Positions 21,255 to 21,374 of a stretch of 64,000 bases of DNA are shown here, one piece after another. How positions within the stretch are numbered: the stretch's first letter is position 1; each line of letters begins with the position of its first letter. The DNA is from Vulcanimicrobiota bacterium (GTDB taxonomy: Bacteria > Vulcanimicrobiota > Vulcanimicrobiia > Vulcanimicrobiales > Vulcanimicrobiaceae). Made by a program: the position numbers and the translations under genes. The stretch lies in contig OY968762.1 of assembly GCA_963695225.1 (NCBI GenBank), positions 2,560,001 to 2,624,000 on the forward strand. The letters run 5' to 3'. The notes under the pieces were generated by a model. The model saw nothing but the letters and a program-made list of their open reading frames with translations. It had not been told where the DNA came from and made no database searches.

Positions 21255-21374
21255 TTAGAGCGCGTCCTCGGGATCGATCCAGGGCCACGGGATCAAAGCC
21301 AAGATCGGCGATGCGATGATCGTCCCGACGATGATGAGCGTGAAGATGAGCGTTGTCCCGAAAGTGGCTTCCAT
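21255..21374 (-). CDS. 39-aa single-TM peptide (copy A)
   Basis: MEATFGTTLIFTLIIVGTIIASPILALIPWPWIDPEDAL; GGGGAG RBS; identical protein at 44608-44727 with only synonymous changes. Confidence 0.88.
   Translation of the reverse strand: MEATFGTTLIFTLIIVGTIIASPILALIPWPWIDPEDAL

Follow-up and report, generated by a model that had tools for sequence, protein, structure and literature searches.

An unnamed family of small single-helix membrane proteins linked to phototrophy in Eremiobacterota

Within a 64,000-nucleotide stretch of the genome of a soil-type photosynthetic bacterium of the Vulcanimicrobiota (Eremiobacterota) (hereafter the window), which carries bch and crt genes as well as two pufBALMC operons, two short open reading frames encode the same 39-aa peptide with a single transmembrane (TM) helix (Table 1). 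This raises the question of whether such a small reading frame is a real gene and, if so, how closely it is linked to phototrophy and what its product may do.

In both copies, the peptide given in the initial annotation and its stop codon are read from the minus strand, and the plus strand of the same intervals yields a translation unrelated to it. The codon alignment reproduced the purely synonymous divergence described there: 14 codons differ at 15 nt (13 third-position and two first-position changes), none of which alters an amino acid. Given a synonymous-site fraction of 0.25, the probability that 15 of 15 changes would be synonymous is ~1e-9. dS is ~0.77 and dN at most 0.012, the 1.0 nonsynonymous difference (Nd) counted in the latter being a path-averaging artefact of one Leu-to-Leu double change. 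The remaining five frames show 4-14 changed residues, and the flanks are unconserved (ungapped identity of 24/60 and 16/60). All-synonymous divergence, together with unconserved flanks and other frames, upholds the proposal of purifying selection on a real 39-aa gene. A longer reading of 71 aa from an upstream ATG was rejected, because stops or unrelated text lie upstream in the other copies.

In genome G001, which belongs to the same genus, the two copies occupy the same pair of contexts as in the window, which indicates that the pair is not an assembly artefact and that the duplication is older than the split between G001 and the genome of the window (G000). No amino-acid difference is found among these four copies at 8-12.5% nucleotide divergence (12.5% and 10.8% within G000 and G001, 8.3% and 10% between them), a constraint equal to that of LH alpha and beta (also no differences) and tighter than that of PufL (4) and PufM (11). 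The puf operon copies themselves show concerted evolution: pufB, pufA, pufL and pufM differ by 0-0.2% within G000 and 0-2.7% within G001, and by 3-13% between the genomes. The peptide copies escape such homogenization and yet show no amino-acid differences, so their identity is held by selection and not by gene conversion. In the window's clade, the window's genome, G001, G030 and G167 each have two or three puf operons, homogenized within the genome; G167 has three, in two of which pufL is split into two frames (L082, L083), which could be a sequencing error.

The expectation that annotation pipelines would miss this gene did not hold, since the exact peptide has already been called as a hypothetical protein (NCBI, JGI/IMG, ENA, Logan; 29 contigs). 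Its assignment to a duplicated photosynthesis block stands in part: both copies lie in the cluster, but the block is mosaic, its second copy being interrupted by other genes. Eight of 11 close relatives of the PufL of the window are in records labelled Eremiobacteraeota or Vulcanimicrobiota, and the others carry the labels Alphaproteobacteria, Armatimonadota and uncultured bacterium. Its best PDB matches are L chains of Roseiflexus (the top match) and Chloroflexus, and no Eremiobacterota reaction centre structure is among them; we take 8iug, 8hju and 8ydm to be these Roseiflexus/Chloroflexus entries, the assignment of 8IUG having been confirmed.

Several other small features of the cluster were observed. 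A 41-aa single-TM ORF lies directly 3′ of pufC in both operons (26325-26450 and 54864-54989, plus strand) and is conserved in the clade, and the N-terminus of PufC (25124-25220) ends with a conserved A-x-A, resembling a cleavable signal peptide, unlike the Roseiflexus-type anchor helix. A 143-aa protein with no Pfam family and its own box (27064-27495 and 55701-56135, plus strand) has homologues in most phototroph clusters and lies directly upstream of the peptide in G024. In G237, pufBA is preceded by a divergent second LH beta/alpha-like pair (L078:9352-9712), and a palindromic MITE/REP-like repeat of 160-260 nt occurs dozens of times genome-wide (3604-3860, 26507-26690, 27614-27810 and 55001-55469 in the window).

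Table 1. Positions of the peptide gene copies, their putative control elements and neighbouring features in the window
Feature	Position	Strand	Remark
39-aa single-TM peptide gene, copy 1	21255..21374	-	Divergent from signal-peptide+TM genes and puf operon 1
39-aa peptide gene, copy 2	44608..44727	-	Flanked by bmp lipoprotein gene and bchF
GTA-N8-TAC box, copy 1	21415..21428	.	12 nt before -10; top-scoring site in genome
GTA-N8-TAC box, copy 2	44769..44782	.	Overlaps bmp stop codon; 13 nt before -10
Putative extended -10 (TG-n-TATCCT), copy 1	21397..21402	-	Same spacing in 8/8 clade copies
Putative extended -10 (TG-n-TACGCT), copy 2	44750..44755	-	Predicted from sequence
Shine-Dalgarno-like sequence, copy 1	21380..21388	-	From sequence
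GC-rich hairpin 3′ of copy-1 stop, possible terminator	21190..21225	-	Predicted fold
Hairpin then T6 after copy 2, terminator-like	44533..44575	-	Predicted fold
Boxes outside the peptide promoters	21475, 22460, 26925, 44487, 46143, 50996, 55526		
pufB, pufA, pufL, pufM, pufC (operon 1)	22550..26245	+	Box at 22460, 22 nt before -10
puf operon 2	51089..54784	+	97.9% identity to operon 1 over 4.4 kb
Two paralogous signal-peptide+TM small genes	21590-21874, 21906-22193 (context 21590..22193)	+	Box at 21475, 22-nt geometry
Second set of signal-peptide+TM genes	46239-46862 (46239-46538, 46572-46862)		
366-aa Crp/Fnr-family regulator, extra N-terminal domain	35962..37062	-	Candidate box binder (putative)

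A single-sequence search of 61 relatives found the peptide in G000, G001 and G030 (two copies each) and in G014, along with a weak match in G024 that sits just upstream of pufB. With a three-sequence profile and 10,480 ORFs from 33 puf loci, the next-ranked candidates, at E 0.19-0.92, were four short ORFs that precede pufB. A 10-row profile gave 18 matches at E<=0.001 among 1.84 billion representatives, 17 of them short family members; one non-seed match, P0023, bridges the short core and the PWPW tail. A word-indexed search returned 14 matches. P0031 (1311 aa, 11 short stretches) and genome matches at E>=1e-3, mostly partial or within long ORFs, were left out. The cores of the long and short forms align gap-free with a profile-profile probability of 95% (80% without bridging rows), and values within the family are 80-97%, whereas six control TM families taken from these loci reach no more than 8.7%. 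On this basis, the 42-aa, 41-aa and signal-peptide+TM (SP-TM) small families were rejected as homologues. Family member P0007 is WPS_26280, a 44-aa hypothetical protein of the cultured Vulcanimicrobium alpinum. The peptide represents a real, unnamed and phototroph-restricted family of small membrane proteins.

The 29 aligned members are 28-46 aa in length and have a single helix. One Pro is invariant; relative to it, Met is found at -11 in 26 and Phe at -8 in 25 of the 29, and A/G/T at -5 and A/S at -1 and +3 are present in all. Weighted conservation shows a periodicity peaking at 102 degrees (permutation p=0.008), that is, one conserved helix face. This M/F/small/Pro face is the conserved surface, and not PWPW, which had been suggested as an interface motif and occurs in only six of the 29. 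The AlphaFold model of the 39-aa peptide is one helix (residues 2-26, mean pLDDT 88.8), with a peak hydropathy of 2.6. Member P0003 has no His and other members have it only outside the helix; identity with LH alpha or beta was rejected for want of a His ligand and for a profile-profile probability below 1% against local LH alpha and beta. The C-terminal tail is net-positive in 25 of 29 members, in which the positive-inside rule would place the N-terminus in the periplasm and the C-terminus in the cytoplasm; the window's clade has the acidic-tailed form.

The link to phototrophy was examined across the phylum, in which 29 of 401 genomes exceed the PF00124 cut-off (pufLM) and are regarded here as reaction-centre genomes. 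A 4-row profile matched six of the 401 at E<=2e-21, all phototrophs, and the other 40 matching genomes had E>=1.3e-3. The 10-row profile matched 12 of 331 family genomes at E<=1.7e-11, all of them among the 29, with four further genomes at E 0.005-0.016. Thus, in the comparison of phototrophs and non-phototrophs proposed by the initial annotation, strong matches occur in 12 of 29 pufLM genomes and in no genome without a reaction centre. Six of the 12 were found beside pufB and then put into the profile, which makes their scores circular; since 10 of the 12 supplied profile rows, what is informative is that no strong matches occur elsewhere. The positive genomes are also relatives and not independent. 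The peptide was not found in the other 17 reaction-centre genomes (best E=0.05 and 0.11; completeness 81-99%), 11 of which are >=90% complete and <=5% contaminated, nor beside the gene for a 366-aa Crp-family regulator in the 15 of these 17 in which that crp was found, or in G024. Being undetected both in these 17 and near their crp, it is not a universal core subunit.

In eight of the 12 positive genomes the peptide lies within ~2.2 kb of pufB, and an ABC pair separates the two in G014 and in the second copies. An independent search of metagenomes for the short form turned up 18 loci, of which 17 have the gene order SP-TM, peptide, DUF2306-like, as do G377, G304, G385 and G286; the remaining one (L142) is a false match inside another gene and was left out. 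pufB is on the contig in 12 of the 17, crtB and crp are in two more, and three contigs are too short. On a midpoint-rooted PufM tree (27 rows, G022 and G255 left out), peptide carriers form the two deepest clades and two long branches, and presence requires two changes versus 9.1 in shuffles. Under that root, this distribution would fit ancestral presence followed by loss or by divergence past detection. A separate family of 40-44 aa TM proteins lies between crp and bchF in eight phototroph genomes, seven of them without the peptide family (L059:3561-3695, L060:4419-4547, L066:4091-4222, L065:4165-4287 and four more); its distribution is near-complementary to that of the peptide, with no detectable homology.

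The palindrome ascribed to the first copy was found ahead of both, as was a purine-rich ribosome-binding site, and GTAG-N6-CTAC occurs four times in the window versus 0.16 expected. A generic promoter/terminator scan gave no sigma-70 promoter and called neither hairpin downstream of the peptide. All 27 operons checked have a GTA-N8-TAC box 89-105 nt upstream of pufB, and TAnnnT follows at 22-23 nt in 20 of 21; outside the window, the boxed pufB promoters are those of L021-L028 and L059-L082. A matrix built from the pufB sites has 28 matches in the genome, nine of them in the window; the two peptide boxes are among the nine and are boxes of the puf regulon. Seven of the nine have the 22-23 nt spacing, which is the class II activator layout of NtcA in excerpts of PMC3898017 and PMC6166021; at the peptide genes the spacing is 12 nt (copy 1) and 13 nt (copy 2). 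All eight peptide copies of the clade (G000, G001, G014, G030, G167) combine 12-13 nt spacing with a TG-n extended -10. In the same excerpts, the box of Anabaena gifA is 11 nt from a TG-n-extended -10 (PMC3898017), and repression is ascribed to boxes that cover the -35 (PMC6166021). The spacing in the clade therefore puts the box over the -35, in a repressor-like position as at gifA, and predicts that the activator of pufB would repress the peptide. Outside the clade, the unit that contains the peptide has activator spacing in G024 (22 nt), G191 (23) and G377 (23) and in seven of nine metagenome loci, degenerate boxes in G304 and G385, and no box seen in G286 and G308.

Taken together, an NtcA-type box with class II spacing is a candidate mark of an Eremiobacterota photosynthesis regulon, and the 366-aa Crp is the candidate factor for it. 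Its N-terminal domain has no Pfam family and occurs in 26 of 28 phototroph versus 0 of 10 other genomes, including genomes without the peptide. Its recognition helix, which we take to resemble that of NtcA, is unlike that of the second Crp in the cluster, and its match to the NtcA profile (46 bits) is far under the 245-bit cut-off. The protein may also be the light or oxygen sensor of the regulon. A paralogue is located at G000:C1:2674084-2675148, and a conserved two-helix hydrophobic ORF of 60-70 aa follows the crp gene in eight of 16 loci (L159, L163-L168, L170).

With coding selection, the family, its linkage to phototrophy and its place in the box regulon established, and its helix one-faced, the partner and function of the peptide can be proposed by analogy. 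We put at about an even chance that it is a pigment-free, single-pass accessory subunit of the reaction centre-light-harvesting complex (RC-LH), with a putative periplasmic N-terminus and cytoplasmic C-terminus, acting like Y, X and h of Roseiflexus. The traits that resemble such a subunit are a short single helix without a bacteriochlorophyll-binding His, confinement to reaction-centre organisms, strict constraint, one conserved face, a position beside pufB and a puf box. The peptide would join the H-subunit-less Type II complex of Eremiobacterota, WPS-2 genomes being described as lacking puhA in excerpts of PMC6664022. Its conserved face (Met -11, Phe -8 and the small residues around Pro) would pack against L/M or the LH ring and thereby stabilize the core or shape the quinone path, as Y(I), X and h(Z) do.

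Among the closest known counterparts is Roseiflexus castenholzii protein Y (also protein I or TM7), which may likewise have a mid-helix proline and an aromatic/acidic C-end. Excerpts of PMC10516601 and PMC10432797 describe three small peptides in this H-less RC-LH, one of 39 aa and two unannotated before cryo-EM; protein Y has a 120-nt coding sequence and a periplasmic N-terminus, and was itself unannotated until then (PMC10516601). The match in length applies to the window's clade only, and the gene of Y is far from puf, whereas that of the peptide is beside it. Roseiflexus X (TMx) and h/Z, purple-bacterial PufX and PufY/protein-U are likewise lineage-specific single-helix RC-LH peptides, often dispensable and patchy, but have no detectable sequence similarity to the peptide. 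The SP-TM proteins are further candidates for RC-LH subunits; a domain-family scan of one second copy (46239-46538) gave no families, and the 95-aa SP-TM neighbour matched only K2P channels in PDB (E>=0.17). The SP-TM paralogues carry a YYYGGYPGPPxWFWIL motif, and in other lineages shorter relatives stand ahead of the peptide.

Three points weigh against the subunit reading: the peptide was not found in 17 of 29 phototrophs, PDB offers no match, and the repressor-like geometry in the clade is awkward for a stoichiometric subunit. In PDB, neither protein Y nor any other small RC-LH chain came up in sequence or profile searches at E<=10, HMMER being weak on helices of 30-40 aa, and Foldseek of the single-helix model gave no PDB match at E<=10, which is uninformative for one helix. 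The best ESM Atlas scores (0.83 and 0.80) were for hypothetical clusters at chance level. Pfam and NCBIfam give no family for P0003 and no assignment for the family as a whole; at E<=1, with filters that drop most matches above E 0.1, the 29 members match 9 Pfam and 11 NCBIfam families weakly, and PufQ, PufX, Fst/Ldr/Hok and PetN/PetG/CydX are not among these. WPS_26280 is not mentioned in the literature searched, subscription journals not being covered; the V. alpinum description mentions pufBALMC but, in the excerpts, no small gene (PMC9758169). Searches for a Vulcanimicrobium RC-LH structure or the Chloroflexus complex listed no paper on such a peptide, and excerpts of PMC12650329 and PMC12654162 are silent on it.

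Some of these points would suit an assembly or regulatory peptide outside the mature complex, which is the main rival reading, though less probable. Such a peptide might bind transiently to an enzyme of the bacteriochlorophyll/haem pathway or to the nascent reaction centre, in a role like that of PufQ, or act as a GifA-like damper when the activator is off. Besides the patchy distribution and the geometry close to that of gifA in all clade copies, the position upstream of pufB and, in G191, that of first gene in a unit with the 366-aa Crp are in its favour. Rhodobacter PufQ is also a small hydrophobic protein encoded upstream of pufB, about twice as long as the peptide; the peptide differs in having no Pfam match, PufQ included, and its own promoter instead of the puf transcript. 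PufQ regulates porphyrin flux according to excerpts of PMC12654162. Activator geometry in the other lineages and the occurrence of the 366-aa Crp where the peptide is missing argue against this reading.

A doubtful, more specific form, for the window's clade, is a counter-regulated switch, in which the phototroph-specific Crp that activates pufBALMC would repress the peptide, so that its production would coincide with a halt in photosystem synthesis. It would then bind RC-LH or the assembly line, throttling or protecting it, as a membrane analogue of the NtcA/gifA pair; the ancestral peptide would have been a co-activated subunit whose control changed when the box moved by one helical turn. 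The likeness to the NtcA regulon lies in the box and in both of its spacings; the differences are that the box here serves photosynthesis genes and that the peptide is a membrane helix, GifA being a soluble protein.

It is rather improbable that the peptide instead partners the SP-TM and DUF2306-like multi-pass proteins in a separate pigment, quinone or lipid membrane complex. The recurrent gene order described above speaks for this, as do the SP-TM paralogues that flank the peptide in the window's clade too (profile match P=64%), but neither neighbour accompanies the peptide in the regions of G024 and G191 examined, both are missing from the V. alpinum locus, and no DUF2306-like gene was seen next to it in the window's clade. 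Still less probable is that the peptide belongs, as a small subunit, to a different electron-transport complex (cytochrome bc/ACIII or an oxidase). PetN, PetG and CydX are of comparable size and topology, and the only PDB match of P0023 is mitochondrial complex III subunit 10, at chance level (E=0.77); against it, genomes without a reaction centre have no strong match, the peptide is never beside such genes in the loci examined, and these families are missing from its weak matches. A type I toxin-like or unrelated hydrophobic peptide hitch-hiking with the cluster, to which the short hydrophobic helix, basic tail and self-contained unit in the clade would be suited, is very unlikely given the regulon box or box-driven units, the restriction to phototrophs, the lack of an Fst/Ldr/Hok match and an Rfam search near copy 1 with nothing of note (one RNaseP-T fragment, E=0.31).

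The Type II reaction centres of Eremiobacterota form a third lineage, and a deep one, and small RC-LH subunits have mostly been found only after cryo-EM, so that the peptide is a candidate named beforehand. The presence of WPS_26280 in cultured V. alpinum makes direct tests possible. The cluster also yields two or three more small TM families, and an NtcA-type box outlines a regulon of photosynthesis genes. Homology to Roseiflexus protein Y would make the peptide an ancestral subunit of H-less reaction centres, and counter-regulation would make it a new control point.
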